The notes: generated by a model from the sequence alone, not told the origin. A stretch of 64,000 bases of DNA from an uncultured Phycisphaeraceae bacterium (GCA_964410465.1 CAYPGJ010000005.1:17275-81274), one strand, 5' to 3'. Shown: positions 31,582 to 58,164, numbered from the stretch's first letter. Program-made: numbers and translations.

Positions 31582-31599
31582 GTGCTACACTGGGGCTGA

Positions 31600-31682
31600 C
31601 AAACGCTCGGGGCGCCCTCCAGAGAGGGCTGAGAAGCACCCGTGGAACCTGATCCGGCTCGTACCGGCGGAGGGAAAGCGAG
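31600..31682 (+). promoter_or_regulatory. TPP (THI-box) riboswitch
   Basis: CGCUCGGGGCGCCCUCCAGAGAGGGCUGAGAAGCACCCGUGGAACCUGAUCCGGCUCGUACCGGCGGAGGGAAAGCG matches the conserved TPP aptamer core. Compare E. coli thiM as recalled: CUCGGGGUGCCC..GGCUGAGA..ACCC..ACCUGAUCUGGAUAAUGCCAGCGUAGGGAAG. It ends 3 nt before the ATG at 31683. Confidence 0.85.
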
Positions 31683-32177
31683 ATGACGTCGGACCCCATC
31701 GAGATCCTTTTGGCGCACCATGACTGGGCGAACCGCACGCTCATCGAGCGGTGTAAGTCGTTGTCGCCAGAGCAGTTTCATCAAAAGCTCGAGCTGGGTC
31801 GGGGGTCATTGCACGACACGATCGTGCACGTGATCTCTGCCGCGAGCGCGTGGACGAACATGCTGATGGAGCGGCCGTTTGAGAAGAGGCTGGAGGGCGA
31901 TCCGGCGCGCACGGCCGAGGAGATCCTGACGCTTCACGGGCAGACACAGGAGGCGCTGGCGATCGCGGCTCGCGCTAAGCCCTTGACGGACATCGCCCAA
32001 GGCGAGCGCGCGGGGCGGAAATATTCTTTTACGAGAGGCGGGGTTTTGTTGCATGTGTTCACGCACGCGATGCACCACCGTGCGCAAGCGTTGAACATGT
32101 TGAGGCAGTTGGGGGACGAGGCGCCGCCGGACGTGTCGGTGCTGGTGTGGATGCTCACGAAGGACACAACCGCCTGA
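31683..32177 (+). CDS. DinB family protein (paralogue 2), immediately downstream of TPP riboswitch
   Basis: Contains [16 protein letters not shown]...EQFH...[18 protein letters not shown]. It is clearly paralogous to 31012..31581. Confidence 0.75.
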
Positions 32178-32199: not shown

Positions 32200-34179
32200 A
32201 TGATGACAACGCGACCAACAGAGCGATATGGCGTACCGACGAGGGGCGCGGGGAACCCGGGATTCGCGCAAGTGACGACGCCTGGGTCGTTTGCGAACAA
32301 GCGCGCGCACGGGTGGGACGCGCGGGGGGCGCTGACGTACTCGTCGCCGGACACGCCGGGGATGCCTGCGGCGTCCACGAAGACCGCGTGGGACTTCCTC
32401 CCAAGTGGGTGGAGTGTCGTCGAGCTTGGCGAAAATGCGCACAGAAATGGATCGACATGGACAGGGCGCGTGTTTTCCCAGAACCCCCATGTGTCCGCGT
32501 CCGGTGCGCCGATTTGCGGTGATATCTCGACTTCCGAGGGCGCGTGCCGTAGTGACGAGAAGAAGGGGGAAGGTTGCGCATGTTGCCTTGGCGAGGATCG
32601 GGCGTTCGTCGAGTTTGTGACGGCCGACAACCGGCGCCTGCGGGTCATCTATCCGGCTGACTTCCGGCCGATGACGCAGCTGGAGCATGCGCGTCTGGGG
32701 ATCGTGACGCCGCAGATGAAGCACGTGGCGACGCGCGAGGCGCATCTCACGGCGGAGATGGTGCGCGATGAGATCGCGGCGGGGCGGATGATCCTGCCGG
32801 CGAACATTCACCACCTTGCGCACCGGCTGGAGCCCATGGTGATCGGGCGGGCGTCGAAGACGAAGGTGAATGCGAACATGGGCGCATCGCCTGTTTCGTC
32901 GGGGACGGATGAGGAGGTGGAGAAGCTGAAGTGGGCCGAGCGTTGGGGCGCGGACACGGTGATGGATTTGTCGACGGGTGGGAACCTGGATGAGTGCCGA
33001 GATGCGATTTTGCGGAACTCGACGGTTCCGATCGGAACGGTGCCGATCTACTCGATGATCATCGGGAAGAAGATCGAGGACCTGACCCCGGAACTGATCC
33101 TTGCCACCCTTGAACATCAGGCGCGGCAGGGCGTGGATTACTTCACGATTCACGCGGGCGTGCTGCGCGAGCACCTGCCGTATGTGAAGAACCGGCTGAT
33201 CGGGATCGTGTCGCGCGGCGGGTCGCTGCTCGCGAAGTGGTGCCTTGTGCATGACGATCAGAACCCGATGTACACGCACTTCGAGGCGATCTGCGACGTG
33301 ATGCGCGAGCATGACGTGTCGTTCTCGCTGGGTGACGGGCTGCGGCCGGGCGGTCTCGCGGATGCGTCGGATGATGCGCAGCTGGCTGAGCTGGAGACGC
33401 TGGGGGAGTTGACGGAGCGGGCGTGGCGGAAGGGTTGCCAGGTGATGGTGGAGGGGCCGGGGCACGTGCCGCTGGATCAGATCGAGTTCAACATGAAGCT
33501 GCAGCGGACGCTGTGCCACGGGGCGCCGTTCTACGTGCTGGGGCCGCTGGTGACGGACGTGTTTCCGGGGTATGACCACATCACGTCGTGCATCGGGGCG
33601 ACGAACGCGGCGTATCACGGGGCGTCGATGCTGTGCTACGTGACGCCGAAGGAGCACCTCGGCTTGCCGAAGAAGGACGACGTGAAGCAGGGGTGCATCG
33701 CGTACAAGATCGCGGCGCATGCGGGGGATGTTGCGCTGGGGATTCCGGGGAGTCGCGAGTGGGATGATGATCTGACGAAGGCGCGGGCCGCGCTCAATTG
33801 GGAGAAGCACTTCGAGTTAGCGTTCGACACGGACACGGCGCGTGCGTTCCACGACGAGGACCTGGACGTGGACACGGACTTCTGCGCGATGTGCGGGCAT
33901 GACTGGTGCTCGGTGCGGATCTCGAAGGAGATTCAGGAGTTTGCGTCGGGCAAGGCCGAGGGGTTTGAGCGGGGCAAGCCGGTGAAGTCTGCGGCGTTGA
34001 CGATCGAGCAGAAGGAGATTCTGGAGAAGCGCGGGGTTTTGAGTCCGGAGGAGATTCATCGGTTGGCGGCGAAGACGAGGAAGGCCGTGGGTGCGGAGGA
34101 GGGGAAGAAGGCGGGGTGTCATTCGGATTATGTGGATGACGACGCCGCCCGATCTCAGATCTCGCGGGCGCTCACATAA
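32200..34179 (+). CDS. thiC: Phosphomethylpyrimidine synthase ThiC (start uncertain; conserved core begins at ATG 32671)
   Basis: The conserved ThiC core runs from [20 protein letters not shown] onward, with the radical-SAM-type C-terminal CxxCxxxxC (CAMCGHDWC). The first 157 codons of the ORF are unlike known ThiC N-termini but retain moderately high third-position G/C. Confidence 0.9.
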
Positions 34180-34189
34180 CCACCGCCGC

Positions 34190-35143
34190 TCATCGACGAA
34201 TTGAATCTGCTTGGTTAGCAAACGAGATATGGCCGTTGATCCGCGCCAACTCTACGTCTCCAGGTTTCATCTTCGTGCGCTGATATTTCATGAGTCGTAT
34301 GCGATTGCGGTACGCCTTTGGCAATCGAACCTGATCGCCATGCACAAGCAACCCGAGCACTCGGATCATTTCCGGACGGCTTTCCACAACGGTTTTTTGC
34401 GTAGCAACTTTCCATCCCCCCGCCACTAGAACGCGACTCACTCTTTCCAAAACACCATCGGGGCCACCTCTCCAATTAGTAACAACGATATCGTCCGCAT
34501 ATCGCGTAAGCCGCCACCCATGCTCGTTGGCCACACTCGCCAAACGCTTGTCAGTATCCGCAAAGACCATGTTCGAAAGTACCGGACTAAGTGGCGATCC
34601 CTGCGGCAACACGCCATTCAGCGTAGCTAGATCTGCGATCAGGTTAGATGCCGCACTTGAGTACCCAACGCGCACGACGCTGTCGTATACTTGCGCACGA
34701 CTAATGCTGCCGAAGAAATCCTTGATATCCACGGATACGCACCACTTTGACCTCTTGTGCTCCTCCGCAGCGCTCCAAATACTCCGACCGGGTACAAAGG
34801 CATGGACATGACTTGGCGCCACCAAACCGCGCGCCCAATACTCCGCAAGCCATTTTTGAATCACCTTTAGCGACACACGCGGAGCCTCGATCTTACGCTT
34901 CTTCGTCCCAGATAGCATATAGAACGTCCTGTAATAATGACGAGCGTTTTTTGCCATCGCAATAACAAATCGCGGAGAGAATCCACTCAAGAGCGACAAC
35001 GTATGCACTGAGGTTACTGGCGGCAGTCCATGACTTGCCAACGTCTCCATAGCATCGACCTCGACATGCCATGGGGTATCCTGAAGTGCCCGCTGCACTT
35101 CATCCATTGTGTCAAATGAAAAAAGGAGCGGCGGGGCCTTCAT
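34190..35143 (-). CDS. Retron-type reverse transcriptase
   Basis: 317 aa with RT motifs SVDIKDFFGSI, LPQGSPLSPVLSN, TRYADDIVV and a downstream RVLGLLV (VTG-like) segment. No maturase/endonuclease or other extra domain. A structured ncRNA lies immediately upstream. The alternative start is Met13 (ATG at 35107). Confidence 0.85.
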   Translation of the reverse strand: MKAPPLLFSFDTMDEVQRALQDTPWHVEVDAMETLASHGLPPVTSVHTLSLLSGFSPRFVIAMAKNARHYYRTFYMLSGTKKRKIEAPRVSLKVIQKWLAEYWARGLVAPSHVHAFVPGRSIWSAAEEHKRSKWCVSVDIKDFFGSISRAQVYDSVVRVGYSSAASNLIADLATLNGVLPQGSPLSPVLSNMVFADTDKRLASVANEHGWRLTRYADDIVVTNWRGGPDGVLERVSRVLVAGGWKVATQKTVVESRPEMIRVLGLLVHGDQVRLPKAYRNRIRLMKYQRTKMKPGDVELARINGHISFANQADSIRR

Positions 35144-35309
35144 TTCAAGTACTCACGCGAGCCAAGGTTGCCCTTGCGTTGTGCGTGCGACGCACGAAGG
35201 CGGAGGATTCGAAGAAGCGTCCGCCTTCGTGCGTCGCAACTTCTGTCCGTGACCTTCGCTGAAGGAGGATGATTCACCCTCCGTGCGAAATGATCCCGCC
35301 GCTCCCTTT
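35121..35309 (-). ncRNA. Putative retron msr-msd non-coding RNA
   Basis: A 15-nt inverted repeat brackets the element: 35295-35309 (RNA AAAGGGAGCGGCGGG) pairs with 35121-35135 (RNA CCCGCCGCUCCUUUU) with one G-U. Inside it are small hairpins (GGAGG..CCUCC, CCUUC..GAAGG) and a perfect 18-bp stem (35187-35204 / 35220-35237) with a 15-nt loop. It lies directly 5' of the RT. Confidence 0.7.
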
Positions 35310-35315
35310 CCAAAG

Positions 35316-36071
35316 TTACCATTTGCGTCTCCCAAGAGCAAGAGCCCGGGCTACGTCTGTGTTTTGTCGGTCAGGACGAGCTGGCAGCGACTGCAATCCG
35401 ATCATGGTCAGCGAAGCGGCCCGGTCCTCGTCGACGACAACCAAGCCCTTGTGCCGGAATCGATCGAACGCGGATCGAACAAGGCGATCATCCGCGTAAT
35501 AGCCCGCGCTCTTCAACCCATCAACCACATGCAACACGCGTGCTGGCTGCATTGCCTTTATTCGCTGCATAATGTGCAAGTCCGTGGGCCATTCGAGCCC
35601 ACGCGCCCGAATATACGCTCGCGCAAGCCGCAACTCCGATTTCCTGAGAGCGCGCGATATCGTAGCGGACAATTGACGAAGCACGCCTGTTAGGTCGCCG
35701 GGTGGCACATATTCTCCTACATCTACGTTGCATACGACTGCCTGTCGCGAGACGAAGACAACCGCCACTTCACACTTAGGAATACCCAATTCAAATGCCA
35801 CCATGGATGACAACAACTCTTCAAGACGAGTCATGGCATCTGACGCGTCATATATCAATATTACCGCTCTATGTACTTGAAGCTCGATTCTTTTAACTGC
35901 TTTCTGCAACTTAGTTCGAAGCGCGACGGCGTCATATGGCACTGTGCCGCCTACACTACCAGAGACTCGCACTATTGTTGTCGACTCATCCTCGTTTTCG
36001 ATGCGTGTCGACTGCAACAGGGACTCATCGATTTTCTTAATCGCGTTCAGTATTGTAGCTTCAAGTTCCAT
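35316..36071 (-). CDS. Hypothetical protein, retron-associated (possible C-terminal winged-helix)
   Basis: 251 aa with lower-G+C codon usage. It overlaps the upstream ORF by 11 nt and stops 7 nt before the ncRNA 5' repeat. No family recognised. The SGSVGG motif is only weakly NTase-like. Confidence 0.6.
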   Translation of the reverse strand: MELEATILNAIKKIDESLLQSTRIENEDESTTIVRVSGSVGGTVPYDAVALRTKLQKAVKRIELQVHRAVILIYDASDAMTRLEELLSSMVAFELGIPKCEVAVVFVSRQAVVCNVDVGEYVPPGDLTGVLRQLSATISRALRKSELRLARAYIRARGLEWPTDLHIMQRIKAMQPARVLHVVDGLKSAGYYADDRLVRSAFDRFRHKGLVVVDEDRAASLTMIGLQSLPARPDRQNTDVARALALGRRKW

Positions 36072-36633
36072 AAGTAGTCCACGCCTCTTTTAGGGCGACA
36101 ATGTGCTCATCGCCTTTTGTGCACCAATTCAATGCGTCCTTTGTGGAAATGATCGCGTCATTCGTGGCAGTATTTGACAACACAAAGTCTATGCCATTCC
36201 ACTCCATACGCATGTCTCTCGTATAATCGGCAGCATTTCGAATACTCTTCGCTTCACGAAGCAACTCGGCCAGTCGTTCGCCGGCCCTTGTCACCTTAAG
36301 TTTTTGAGAAGCTGCGGCAAGCTGGTCGACGCTACGGCTTCGCTCGTGTCGACTGATTGCGTCGATAATAGCGCTACATACCATCCGCTGCACTGTTCGC
36401 GGCATGCCCGAATGTGACGGGTCAGGAGTAGACGAACCACAGACTTCGAGCACCATACTGCGCGTTGCCAACAGAAGTGCGTAGTACGATCGATTAACCA
36501 CGCTCTTCGCAAATAGCTCTGCTTCATCGACCGCAAACTGGCGTCGATTGCATGCTTCTGTCAAAAGAAACTGAGCTACAACTAGCATTACAAAACTACC
36601 TTTGGCTAACTGGAGCATCGATTCTCGCCACAA
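36061..36633 (-). CDS. HEPN-like (UPF0332-type) domain protein, retron-associated
   Basis: 190 aa. NRSYYALLLATRSMVL....SHSG and a C-terminal IRNAADY resemble the sR.YYA..ha...H.g and R..aDY signatures of UPF0332/HEPN proteins. Assignment is from memory of the family, not a search. Confidence 0.5.
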   Translation of the reverse strand: MWRESMLQLAKGSFVMLVVAQFLLTEACNRRQFAVDEAELFAKSVVNRSYYALLLATRSMVLEVCGSSTPDPSHSGMPRTVQRMVCSAIIDAISRHERSRSVDQLAAASQKLKVTRAGERLAELLREAKSIRNAADYTRDMRMEWNGIDFVLSNTATNDAIISTKDALNWCTKGDEHIVALKEAWTTYGT

Positions 36634-36711
36634 GTAAGGCGAGACACCACTCTAGTGTCGGGCCATCCACTCAGCAATGTCGCTGTGCCGCGTCCGATCA
36701 GCACGATGCCA

Positions 36712-37290
36712 TAGCCCTCTCCTTTATCCTCTCCCGTTGCCCCCCGGGGGGCCAACGGGAGAGGTGGCCGGGGTCGCGTCTCGTTTGTCAGGTGGAGGGT
36801 GCGCGGGACGGGCTCACACGATGGGGGCAAGAGGCGCGGGCGGTGATGCAAAAAGGCCGATTTGATGAGATCGCCGGGGAGATGGTGGCGTGGGACTCTG
36901 CGAGGCGTGGTAGGTAAAGGAGCGATGCACCCCCGGATGGTTGCCCTCTCCCTCCCCTCTCCCATTCGTCAGAGCTCGAACGGGAGAGGTGGGAGTACCA
37001 CGCTCCCTCACGGTCGCGTCTCGCCCGTCACGCGAAGGGCGCGCAGGACGCGCACACACGATGGGGACGGGGTGCGCGGCCGATGATGCAGAAAGGCCGA
37101 TTCGATGAGATCGCCGGGGAGATGGTGGCGTGGGACTCTGCGAGGCGATGTAGATGAGGGAGCGATGCAGTAGCCCTCTCCTTTATCCTCTCCCGTTGCC
37201 CCCCGGGGGGCCAACGGGAGAGGTGGCCGGGGTCGCGTCTCGTTTGTCAGGCGTGGGGTGCGCGGGACGGGCTCACACGATGGGGGGTTA
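36712..37290. repeat. Tandem repeat, ~2.5 copies of a ~220-240-bp unit containing a palindromic element
   Basis: The ~60-nt block aaaggccgatt(t/c)gatgagatcgccggggagatggtggcgtgggactctgcgaggcg occurs at 36851-36906 and 37091-37146. The block tagccctctcctttatcctctcccgttgccccccggggggccaacgggagaggtggccggggtcgcgtctcgtttgtcagg occurs at 36712 and 37171, with a diverged middle copy. Hairpins CCTCTCCCGTTG..CAACGGGAGAGG lie at 36728-36764, 36956-36989 and 37187-37223. Confidence 0.85.
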
Positions 37291-37832
37291 CTCGTGGCCC
37301 CCAGCTGCGCCGTAGGCCACGGCACACTCAAACCTCAACTGCGCGCTGGACAAGCGGTGTGCGCGATGTAGAGTGTGCGCGGATGATGCTGAAGTCTGCC
37401 ATTGCCTGAACGGCCTTGCTCCGCCGGTCCTGAAGAAGGATGGAGTGAGCGCGACGCGACTGTCGTCGGTCTTCTCAAAGAGGGGGCTGCGCGGCGGGAG
37501 GTGTGTCGTGCGCGGGAGCAGGGCCGAGGGCCCCCACTGCAACTGAATCGACGCGGGTTTTGAGCGGTTTTTCGTGCGCGCTCTCACCCCCCCACCACCA
37601 CCGCCGCCGGGACAGGCGTGATGGGCTTCCTGCCGAACGGCGCGGGGCCCTGAATGCACGTCGTTCGCGTTGCTCTTCGGGCGTGCGCGATGTGCGGCGC
37701 TGGTGTGCGGCGGGTTGAGGTGAGCGCGGGGAGTAGAGGCCGCGCGGACGGCAAGGCGATCGCGGGCGCTCTTTGAGCGGGCGATCTGTCGGCGCGGTCG
37801 GTCTGTCAACTTTGACTGGGAACGAAGATCAC

Positions 37833-57750: not shown

Positions 57751-58164
57751 TGCGCCCGAGAGGACTCGAACCTCTGACCTGCGGTTTCAGCCACCCGCCG
57801 ATTCCTCGACGGACCGGACCATCTCTTCGTCCGTGCCGCAGACGCTGACGCGTCGTTGTGCAGGACGCCGGGCGCTTCGGAGGACGCGTCGCTCTGGACG
57901 CGGGGCCTCCTACGCGGGGGTATCGCCGGGGCGGCTCACCCGCTGGTCTCTACACCTTCCGACGGCAGTGGGATTGGGACCCACGCCCCGCCGTCGGCTC
58001 GGCTCGGGATCGCCCCGCACGCGTTGATGGCGTGCGTCGGGGTTCCCCGAATTCACCCGGTTCGCCACGACCCGTCACCGGGCCGGGCCCCTCTTCTTCT
58101 CGCCGGCTCGCGCCGGCGGGGATCCAAAGGAAACCGCCGCTCTATCCAGCTGAGCTACGAGCGC
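57751..58164 (-). tRNA. tRNA-Arg(CCU) gene interrupted by an intron in the anticodon loop
   Basis: Exon 1 (58164-58128) is GCGCUCGUAGCUCAGCUGGAUAGAGCGGCGGUUUCCU. Exon 2 (57787-57751) is AAACCGCAGGUCAGAGGUUCGAGUCCUCUCGGGCGCA. Joined, they give a canonical 74-nt cloverleaf with a 7-bp acceptor, GCUC/GAGC D-stem, GCGGU/ACCGC anticodon stem, AGAGG/CCUCU T-stem and UUCGAGU T-loop. Acceptor and D-arm are almost identical to E. coli tRNA-Arg(CCG) as recalled. No CCA is encoded. Confidence 0.85.
57788..58127 (-). other. Group I (IC3-like) intron within tRNA-Arg(CCU)
   Basis: 340 nt with no ORF. The 5' exon ends in U and the intron ends in G. It contains GAAUUCGGGGAACCCC and GGAAGGUGUAGAGACCAGCGGG, closely resembling the AAAUUCGGCGAAACC and GAAGGUGUAGAGACUAGACGG core of the Azoarcus tRNA-Ile IC3 intron as I recall it. 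Confidence 0.7.

Follow-up and report, generated by a model that had tools for sequence, protein, structure and literature searches.

A divergent, probable type IX retron in a strain-variable chromosomal interval of an uncultured Phycisphaeraceae bacterium

The window analysed here, a 64,000-nt stretch of DNA from an uncultured Phycisphaeraceae bacterium (GCA_964410465.1 CAYPGJ010000005.1:17275-81274), contains a 2.5-kb block made up of three minus-strand open reading frames (ORFs) and a structured RNA gene of ~190 nt (Table 1; positions are counted from the first letter of the window). Upstream of an msr/msd non-coding RNA (ncRNA) and a retron reverse transcriptase (RT), it encodes a HEPN-like protein and one whose C-terminal part is a winged helix (WH), an anatomy that the initial annotation of this DNA had read correctly. 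The positions it gave for the 317-aa RT, the 251-aa ORF and the 190-aa ORF with its TTG start, the 11-nt overlap of the latter two at 36061-36071, and the 10-nt gap between the end of the RT gene and the convergent thiC stop (34179) are all correct, and each motif it quoted is found (NRSYYA, SHSG, IRNAADY, SVDIKDFFGSI, LPQGSPLSPVLSN, YADD, and RVLGLLV). Its description of the block as poor in G+C is strongly borne out by the composition check: the G+C content is 0.526 against 0.673 in the remaining window, sliding-window values fall from 0.62-0.70 in the flanks to 0.46-0.58 within the block, and G+C at third codon positions (GC3) is 0.50-0.55 in the three retron genes against 0.83 in thiC. Because of this difference in overall and third-position composition, the block is probably of foreign origin.

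Table 1. Features of the retron block and the interval that surrounds it.
Feature	Position	Strand	Remarks
Retron type IX RT, 317 aa	34190..35143	-	YADD at 215-218; N-terminal extension of ~45 aa
msr-msd ncRNA gene, ~193 nt, a1 to a2	35119..35311	-	last 25 nt overlap the first RT codons
a2 arm CCCGCCGCUCCUUUUUU	35119..35135	-	within RT codons 3-8
Stem-loop 3, G[CAAGG]GCAA[CCUUG]G	35162..35177	-	opposing G 35177; predicted branching (priming) G 35162
Predicted msd template, 76 nt	35178..35253	-	conserved ACAGAAG box 35240-35246; 19-bp hairpin 35186-35238, loop CGCUUCUUCGAAUCC
msr lower stem (UUCGC/GCGAA) and SL1 hairpin (35264-35282)	35255..35289	-	100% paired; 5/10 pairs changed on both sides
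a1 arm GGAAAGGGAGCGGCGGG	35295..35311	-	17-bp duplex with a2, 3 G-U pairs
Winged-helix (WH / KH-HTH) adaptor and antitoxin, 251 aa	35316..36071	-	HTH_IX; antitoxin role by homology
HEPN RNase effector (toxin), 175 aa from Met16	36061..36588	-	alternative starts 36618 (ATG), 36633 (TTG)
Imperfect copies (~2.5) of a 220-240-nt repeat	36704..37286		37-nt G+C-rich palindromes 36728-36764, 37187-37223
Strain-variable thiC-RNHCP segment	34137..37344		retron and repeat elements

All three proteins match dedicated type IX retron models among the profile models of PADLOC-DB (hereafter PADLOC) essentially end to end, a check that the initial annotation had proposed. The RT aligns with RT_IX over residues 1-315 of 317 (E = 2.3e-105, 350 bits), followed by RT_II-A (199.5 bits) and RT_X (193.7 bits), and the 25 best PADLOC matches shown for it are all retron RT models. 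Its top match in the PDB is the RT of Retron-Kva2 (36ht_A, 1.8e-57, residues 2-315), with Ec86 at 2.5e-21. Residues Y215, A216, D217, and D218 are invariant among 25 relatives. Type IX RTs possess an N-terminal domain of ~45 aa that contacts the WH protein; in the window, RT residues 2-45 align with residues 2-45 of the Kva2 RT, and the match to the RT_IX profile begins at residue 1. Pfam detects RVT_1 alone and NCBIfam gives sub-threshold matches to retron RTs. The earlier description of the enzyme as retron-like and free of maturase or endonuclease domains agrees with the lead of RT_IX and with the lack of any extra domain within the 317 aa. Its assignment to RT clade 7 was made from profile and PDB scores.

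Conserved synteny, which the initial annotation had named as a test, accompanies the RT. A scan of a genome collection with the RT alignment returned 11 loci with full-length RTs of 37-41% identity (L002-L012), from hosts that include Shewanella, Paraburkholderia, Chromobacterium, Aporhodopirellula, and Ruficoccus. In 11 of 11, an ORF of 162-183 aa overlaps one of 242-275 aa, followed by a gap of ~145-170 nt and the RT, and the upstream ORFs are homologous to the HEPN and WH proteins of the window. The same layout recurs in nine of ten further loci from the closest relatives of the RT; the exception is L098, where the ORF script detected no separate HEPN ORF. The HEPN and WH genes overlap mostly by 8-32 nt across the syntenic loci, the 11 nt of the window included. 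Beyond an identical copy on a second contig (JGI 3300028830 Ga0310361_1598349), the best relative of the RT shares 46% identity and derives from an NCBI metagenome-assembled genome (MAG) also present in a Logan assembly (L082, L083). The accessory proteins encoded beside the nearest RT relatives share only 25-31% identity with their counterparts in the window. With the WH protein as query, an exhaustive HMMER search of 1.84 billion representatives gave 78 non-self matches at E up to 1e-3, nearly all of ~245-255 aa, and ten of ten sampled were HTH_IX proteins. Since identity reaches at most 46% for the RT and at most ~31% for the accessory proteins, yet the sampled WH relatives belong to HTH_IX, the window copy is a long branch inside the type IX family.

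The initial annotation had described the first protein as UPF0332/HEPN-like. The HEPN part of that description stands, with HEPN_IX covering ORF residues 16-186 on profile positions 1-157 of 161 (6.7e-22, 76.3 bits) and the HEPN of Retron-Kva2 as top PDB match (36ht_I, 1.1e-4), while the Pfam HEPN and UPF0332 families give no match at E up to 1. Homology favours Met16 (36588; 175 aa) over the TTG start that had been proposed, the N-termini of homologues aligning with MLVVAQ.... H64 and R122 of the Kva2 HEPN align with H74 and R132 of the 190-aa ORF, that is, H59 and R117 when counted from Met16. In the same numbering, all 21 type IX loci retain N32, R33, Y35, Y36, H59, D121, and Y122, and 20 of them retain R117. 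The protein does not fit a canonical HEPN, as defined by Pfam HEPN/UPF0332 membership and an Rx4-6H motif: there is no Pfam match, and the arginine is followed by NAADY, with no histidine at four to six residues. Read from its sequence, it is a HEPN with the non-canonical catalytic His/Arg pair of the type IX family. Relative to 11 homologues, the window HEPN also carries a 7-residue insertion (NTATNDA) before its last helices, near the C-terminus. The HEPN gene is often left uncalled in source records despite an intact ORF (L001, L082, L092-L095, L098), the source contig of the window being among these cases.

The 251-aa protein matches HTH_IX over residues 1-250 on profile positions 1-240 of 240 (8.7e-24, 82.5 bits). 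Its top PDB match is the Kva2 WH protein (36ht_B, 4.7e-4), in which residues 153-243 align with window residues 160-249, corresponding to the C-terminal domain. The initial annotation had suspected a winged helix in the C-terminal third, rightly so; its statement that the protein has no recognisable family gives way to the end-to-end HTH_IX match. The C-terminal tail DVARALALGRRKW is conserved, with the pattern S/T-x-D-V-x-R-x-L, and the last 14 WH residues are essential in Kva2. Judged by sequence, the operon encodes a winged-helix adaptor of three-domain length. Neither accessory protein has a credible family in Pfam or NCBIfam. Because the HEPN gene so often goes uncalled and these libraries recognise neither partner, routine annotation shows a lone RT beside a hypothetical protein.

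The intergenic element was rightly described as highly structured, with a folding energy of -80.5 kcal/mol (z = -3.4) that 0 of 200 shuffled sequences equalled. Its location between the WH and RT genes is likewise correct; its confinement to the gap between them is not, as the 3' arm a2 lies inside RT codons 3-8. The 7-nt gap said to precede it shrinks also, the 5' arm a1 beginning 4 nt past the WH stop. An a1/a2 duplex of differing sequence is present in all 12 loci of the alignment (the window and L002-L012) and in the extra loci that were folded. It was scored locus by locus, the pairing register shifting among lineages, and has a core of ~7-17 bp (10-17 bp in most), with the 3' arm overlapping the first RT codons. 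In every type IX locus examined (L002-L012 and the window), a2 overlaps the RT start codon or the first five to eight codons. Because a2 overlaps them, the codons of the conserved N-terminal ‘PPLL’ of the RT are under both coding and RNA-pairing constraint.

Between the two arms, the 12-locus alignment contains the msr lower stem, the stem-loop 1 (SL1) hairpin, and a long msd hairpin, with compensatory changes in 24 of 29 predicted pairs; in the msd hairpin they occur at all 19. Stem-loop 3 was added to this alignment by hand, which brought the count to 34 pairs, with slid-partner and shuffle controls. Both sides change in 26 of the 34. Sliding the partners by 1-3 columns lowers the share of paired cells from 93.0% to 34-45% and the covariation score from 0.706 to 0.164 or less, and none of 500 shuffles attains any of the observed measures. 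All but one of the 12 loci have the stem-loop 3 motif, G-[4-5 bp]-loop-[4-5 bp]-G-CU, downstream of the msd hairpin. In the window, two stem positions differ from the commonest form (AAAGN/NCUUU) by compensating changes.

The numbering of the Kva2 ncRNA was transferred to the window by spacing and motifs. In Kva2, the msr hairpin corresponds to SL1 (G18-C34), which is bound by the RT thumb, and G121 and G139 are the opposing and branching G, respectively. The distance from SL1 to stem-loop 3 is 82-89 nt in 11 of the 12 loci and 86 nt in Kva2. By homology with Kva2 G45-C120, the msd template probably has the boundaries listed in Table 1 and the same length of 76 nt, and the predicted msd DNA is 5'-GTTGTGCGTGCGACGCACGAAGGCGGAGGATTCGAAGAAGCGTCCGCCTTCGTGCGTCGCAACTTCTGTCCGTGAC-3'. 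SL1, the msd hairpin, stem-loop 3, and the a1/a2 duplex are all recognisable, which argues for homology of this ncRNA with those of other type IX loci. Rfam reports no retron or intron RNA family, either permissively over 33500-37800 or at the gathering threshold over the whole window, where a thiamine pyrophosphate (TPP) riboswitch is its only match. A tblastn search of plasmids with the Kva2 RT for Kva2-like ncRNAs gave distant matches in Photobacterium and Leisingera alone.

These features correspond to a published definition. Type IX retrons have an RT of clade 7 and, ahead of the retron module, a linked gene pair (Mestre et al., 2020; PMC7736814). The first gene of the pair encodes a HEPN protein (cluster 1740_1) that lacks the histidine of Rx4-6H and conserves another histidine; the second, overlapping the first by ~8 bp, specifies a protein whose C-terminal part is a winged helix (cluster 1093_1) (PMC7736814). 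Every testable type IX feature was found at the locus, namely the gene order, a HEPN His/Arg pair without Rx4-6H, the RT extension and YADD, the WH helix, and the ncRNA. The locus is very probably a type IX retron in complete form, an anti-phage system of four parts acting by abortive infection, that was acquired horizontally and resides in a variable hotspot. The initial annotation had proposed an undescribed retron or defence variant, a claim that falls away since HEPN_IX, HTH_IX, and RT_IX are all matched and the architecture is that of type IX, catalogued in 2020. It had also held that a match of the accessory proteins to a catalogued retron type would make the system real but not novel, and this is the outcome.

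Three preprints of July 2026 describe how such systems work: multicopy single-stranded DNA (msDNA) scaffolds an assembly that cages HEPN, and phage factors that cut or bind msDNA release it. In Retron-Kva2, the HEPN toxin cannot act without H64 and R122 and is held in check by WH and RT-msDNA (Hayashi et al., 10.64898/2026.07.14.738597). WH and msDNA encircle the HEPN active site in a sheet-like assembly, and cleavage of rRNA and tRNA is switched on when a phage exonuclease cuts the msDNA (10.64898/2026.07.14.738597). For both Kva2 and Sen3, abortive infection against phage has been demonstrated, with a toxic HEPN that WH and RT-msDNA neutralise. Sen3 and Yin1 form an msDNA-scaffolded ring, in which residues D199, R202, K203, and R209 of the helix-turn-helix (HTH) protein read the loop tip of the neighbouring unit (Carabias et al., 10.64898/2026.07.14.737667). 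The T5 protein D5 activates Kva2 by mimicking WH and binding msDNA, and the same WH pocket and a YYY triad were identified in that work (Hibshman et al., PMC13405049).

Extrapolated from the characterised homologues Kva2, Sen3, and Yin1, the system in the window would operate as follows. The RT would bind the msr hairpin, prime from the 2'-OH of the closing G of stem-loop 3 (predicted G35162), and copy ~76 nt of msd into a hairpin msDNA, stalling at the GUCACGG/ACAGAAG region. RT-msDNA would join WH and HEPN to build a higher-order sheet or ring. There, the active site of the HEPN dimer would be occluded by WH and msDNA, such that WH and RT-msDNA act as the antitoxin and HEPN as the toxin. A phage protein would dismantle the assembly by cutting msDNA (an exonuclease or PD-(D/E)XK nuclease) or by binding to it (an HTH mimic), and the freed HEPN would cleave tRNAs and rRNAs, leading to growth arrest and a block of phage production.

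Several points weigh against the type IX reading or parts of it. The assignment draws on sequence and comparative evidence, and activity is predicted by homology. The published groups disagree on the priming G and on the trigger, which are the least certain steps of the mechanism; the priming site is the least secure because the other two preprints describe canonical priming. Single-sequence structure models give no fold-level confirmation for HEPN (predicted local distance difference test, pLDDT, 39.4) and none of the three-domain fold for WH (pLDDT 36.8). The first tyrosine of the substrate-positioning YYY triad is serine in the window HEPN (SYY), and of the four WH positions with which Yin1/Kva2 read the msDNA tip, two are replaced (K to H, R to V). 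A promoter scan found no convincing sigma-70-like promoter upstream of the HEPN gene, although Planctomycetota promoters may not fit the consensus. A word-indexed search of 5.8 billion proteins returned only the query itself for both accessory proteins, and the best non-self WH match of the exhaustive search reaches only 57 bits at 23-28% identity.

Some of these observations would suit a decaying, non-functional type IX remnant, kept merely through recent acquisition: the accessory proteins are extremely divergent, the tip readers (H207, V213) and the YYY triad are substituted, no promoter consensus was found, and identical copies are known only in contigs of this organism. Such decay is nonetheless unlikely, as the three ORFs are intact and of family-typical length, the invariant HEPN residues, YADD, and the WH C-terminal helix are all kept, and every ncRNA helix persists with perfect or compensated pairing, including the 19-bp msd stem and the 17-bp a1/a2 duplex. 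The WH substitutions, moreover, are matched by a change in the tip and shared with L083 and L092, which looks like co-adaptation. The self-only result of the word-indexed search, together with the lack of a Pfam or NCBIfam family for either accessory protein and a HEPN gene uncalled by the gene caller of the source metagenome, might instead speak for the original proposal of a retron type or defence variant whose HEPN and 251-aa module appears in no catalogue. That proposal is very improbable given the end-to-end matches to HEPN_IX, HTH_IX, and RT_IX, the Kva2 chains as best PDB matches, and the agreement of gene order, overlap, missing motif histidine, and ncRNA with the 2020 definition; the sampled WH relatives from the exhaustive search, too, are all HTH_IX.

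The probability is slighter still that the RT is not of the retron kind (a group II intron, diversity-generating retroelement (DGR), abortive infection (Abi), or UG/DRT enzyme) and happens to lie beside an unrelated HEPN toxin-antitoxin (TA) pair. HEPN toxins with small partners are common as stand-alone TA modules, and the RT does match Drt2, Drt3a, and a group II RT model weakly. The scores lie far under the cut-offs, however (TIGR04416, 60.6 bits against 300; Drt2, 40.7 against 390; Drt3a, 35.3 against 200), and the top PADLOC matches are all retron RTs. A maturase or endonuclease domain is not present and Rfam reports no intron RNA, whereas the genes flank a covarying msr-msd RNA and the three-gene synteny extends to at least 20 loci. 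The non-retron RT readings and a stand-alone HEPN TA were rejected on the PADLOC and NCBIfam profile scores and the conserved synteny. A complete type IX retron remains the preferred reading.

Within that reading, the interface between WH and the msDNA tip differs from the characterised systems. It joins neighbouring units in Yin1 and is the target of phage HTH mimics in Kva2. The Yin1 contacts (dT26, dG28, dA29, dG31, and dG32; 10.64898/2026.07.14.737667) fit a tip TCGAAGG, the complement of the conserved msd loop CCUUCGA. The four reader residues were mapped on the alignment and the msd loop was read at 22 loci (the window, L002-L012, L083, and L092-L100). Ten loci combine the readers D-R-K-R with the tip TCGAAGG and none combines them with an altered tip; where the readers deviate, the tip is altered in 11 loci and unaltered in one (L096, D-R-K-S). 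The association gives p = 3.4e-5 by Fisher's exact test, uncorrected for phylogeny and with several of the loci close kin. The window has the readers D203-R206-H207-V213 (D-R-H-V) and the tip TCGAAGA, in which the G contacted by the lysine is A and the lysine itself is His. Its nearest relatives, L083 and L092, also have TCGAAGA, with Gln in place of Lys and the downstream Arg replaced too, and in L098 a change of Lys to Arg accompanies one of dT26 to dC. It is conceivable, if somewhat doubtful, that the retron of the window and those of L083 and L092 form a type IX sub-lineage with a re-tuned WH-msDNA tip interface and that readers and tip co-evolve across type IX. The co-variation may be new: a text search turned up no reference to co-variation in Carabias et al., and the preprints stress the conservation of the WH pocket. 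If true, co-evolution would give mutually orthogonal assemblies, possibly with different trigger specificities, and the apparent co-variation could guide the design of orthogonal retron assemblies or synthetic triggers.

The retron is surrounded by housekeeping genes, including those for LeuRS, TruD, FolC, ThiC, an MprF-like protein, and an ATPase of the type II secretion system (T2SS) type. DinB and TruD of the window fall into clusters of at least 90% identity with MAG proteins labelled as Phycisphaerales bacterium, which makes the host a planctomycete of the Phycisphaerales. Two related Phycisphaerales genomes, L101 (GCA_050251115.1) and L102 (GCA_964652035.1), were reached through cluster members of the neighbouring DinB protein. 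Both match the window up to 34136 (86%) and again from 37345 (78-79%), with different cargo in between. The cargo of L101 (12454-15561) comprises four ORFs with no credible family match; that of L102 (12454-13910) comprises an FRG-domain protein, matching the PADLOC candidate defence family PDC-S15 (5e-20), and a 291-aa ORF. Both cargos are lower in G+C (0.59 against 0.675). Because L101 and L102 carry other cargo here, the thiC-RNHCP interval is a strain-variable hotspot of which the retron is one alternative occupant. No integrase, transposase, or tRNA adjoins the island, and a metagenome scan for an empty site with a degenerate pattern of the ThiC C-terminal tail found only distant thiC genes (70-79% nucleotide identity) with no shared downstream synteny.

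The tandem-repeat array that the initial annotation placed beside the block does consist of repeats (~2.5 imperfect copies), although Tandem Repeats Finder makes no call there. Each copy includes the 37-nt palindrome CCTCTCCCGTTGCCCCCCGGGGGGCCAACGGGAGAGG, and within the window the repeats occur at this site only. Related copies are found at the same hotspot in L101 (~15510) and L102 (~13747). The repeats could be elements of the repetitive extragenic palindromic (REP) type or resemble miniature inverted-repeat transposable elements (MITEs), or they could be recombination sites for cargo exchange.

Other observations concern the wider window. The 3' end of the TPP riboswitch (31598-31693, plus strand, 68.8 bits) overlaps the start of a DinB-family ORF (31683-32177), and this ORF lies between the riboswitch and thiC (32200-34179); the DinB-ThiC order is kept in L101 and L102. 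The thiC ORF has an N-terminal extension of ~150 aa (32200-32660) that may be leader rather than coding sequence, and a 74-nt stretch within it (32330-32403) is 82% conserved in distant marine thiC loci. ARAGORN calls a ‘tRNA-???’ of 95 nt with a four-base anticodon (ccgt) at 57751-57845 on the minus strand, just upstream of a 1537-aa DUF748 ORF. It has no Rfam support at the gathering threshold and probably represents a spurious call or an unusual tRNA-like element.

As type IX is catalogued and structurally explained, the locus has no value as a new defence system. The main claim to novelty fails, and the remaining interest is modest: a deep-branching planctomycete member, a variable hotspot, and a hint of co-evolution at the tip interface. 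Type IX, described as most prevalent in Pseudomonadota, is extended to the Phycisphaerales, and a divergent copy that keeps every catalytic and structural hallmark at ~25% identity marks the residues that are truly constrained. The locus also calls for caution in annotation, since the HEPN gene is often overlooked by gene callers, and both accessory proteins by general-purpose libraries such as Pfam and NCBIfam. The thiC-proximal hotspot could be mined for other defence genes.

Among known systems, Retron-Kva2 of Klebsiella variicola (PDB 36ht; 10.64898/2026.07.14.738597, 10.64898/2026.07.11.737809) has the same four components in the same order. Shared with the window are the RT alignment over residues 2-315, including the N-terminal domain and YADD, the HEPN pair H64/R122, the C-terminal HTH domain and terminal helix of WH, and an ncRNA layout of SL1, ~86 nt, stem-loop 3 flanked by Gs, and an msd with a predicted length of 76 nt. 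Identity is low, however: the pairwise score is 198 bits for the RT, HEPN and WH are barely detectable at 25 and 23 bits, and the N-terminal HEPN-binding domains of WH cannot be aligned by phmmer. The window also differs in its msDNA tip (TCGAAGA against TCGAAGG), in the WH reader K201, which is replaced by His, and in the Arg six residues on (Yin1 R209, Sen3 R207), which is replaced by Val, as well as in its HEPN, which has SYY for YYY and the 7-residue insertion near the C-terminus. Its host is a high-G+C planctomycete, not an enterobacterium.

Sen3 and Yin1 share with the window the definition of the operon (RT, ncRNA, KH-HTH, and HEPN) and the catalytic residues, RT D223/D224 and HEPN H64 being conserved (10.64898/2026.07.14.737667). 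Their HTH residues D199 and R202 correspond to D203 and R206 of the window, whereas K203 and R209 are replaced by H207 and V213. Their trigger, the B14T PD-(D/E)XK nuclease of coliphages, is probably not shared by phages that infect Phycisphaerales. HEPN-MNT and other HEPN TA systems resemble the locus in having a partner-inhibited HEPN RNase toxin that forms a dimer with a composite active site. In contrast to HEPN-MNT, the window HEPN lacks both Rx4-6H and a Pfam HEPN match, and no nucleotidyltransferase antitoxin accompanies it; inhibition is instead predicted to be exerted by WH together with RT-made msDNA. Compared with type IX as defined by Mestre et al. and with the PADLOC retron IX models, the locus shows no difference at the level of definition and stands as a long branch of that type.

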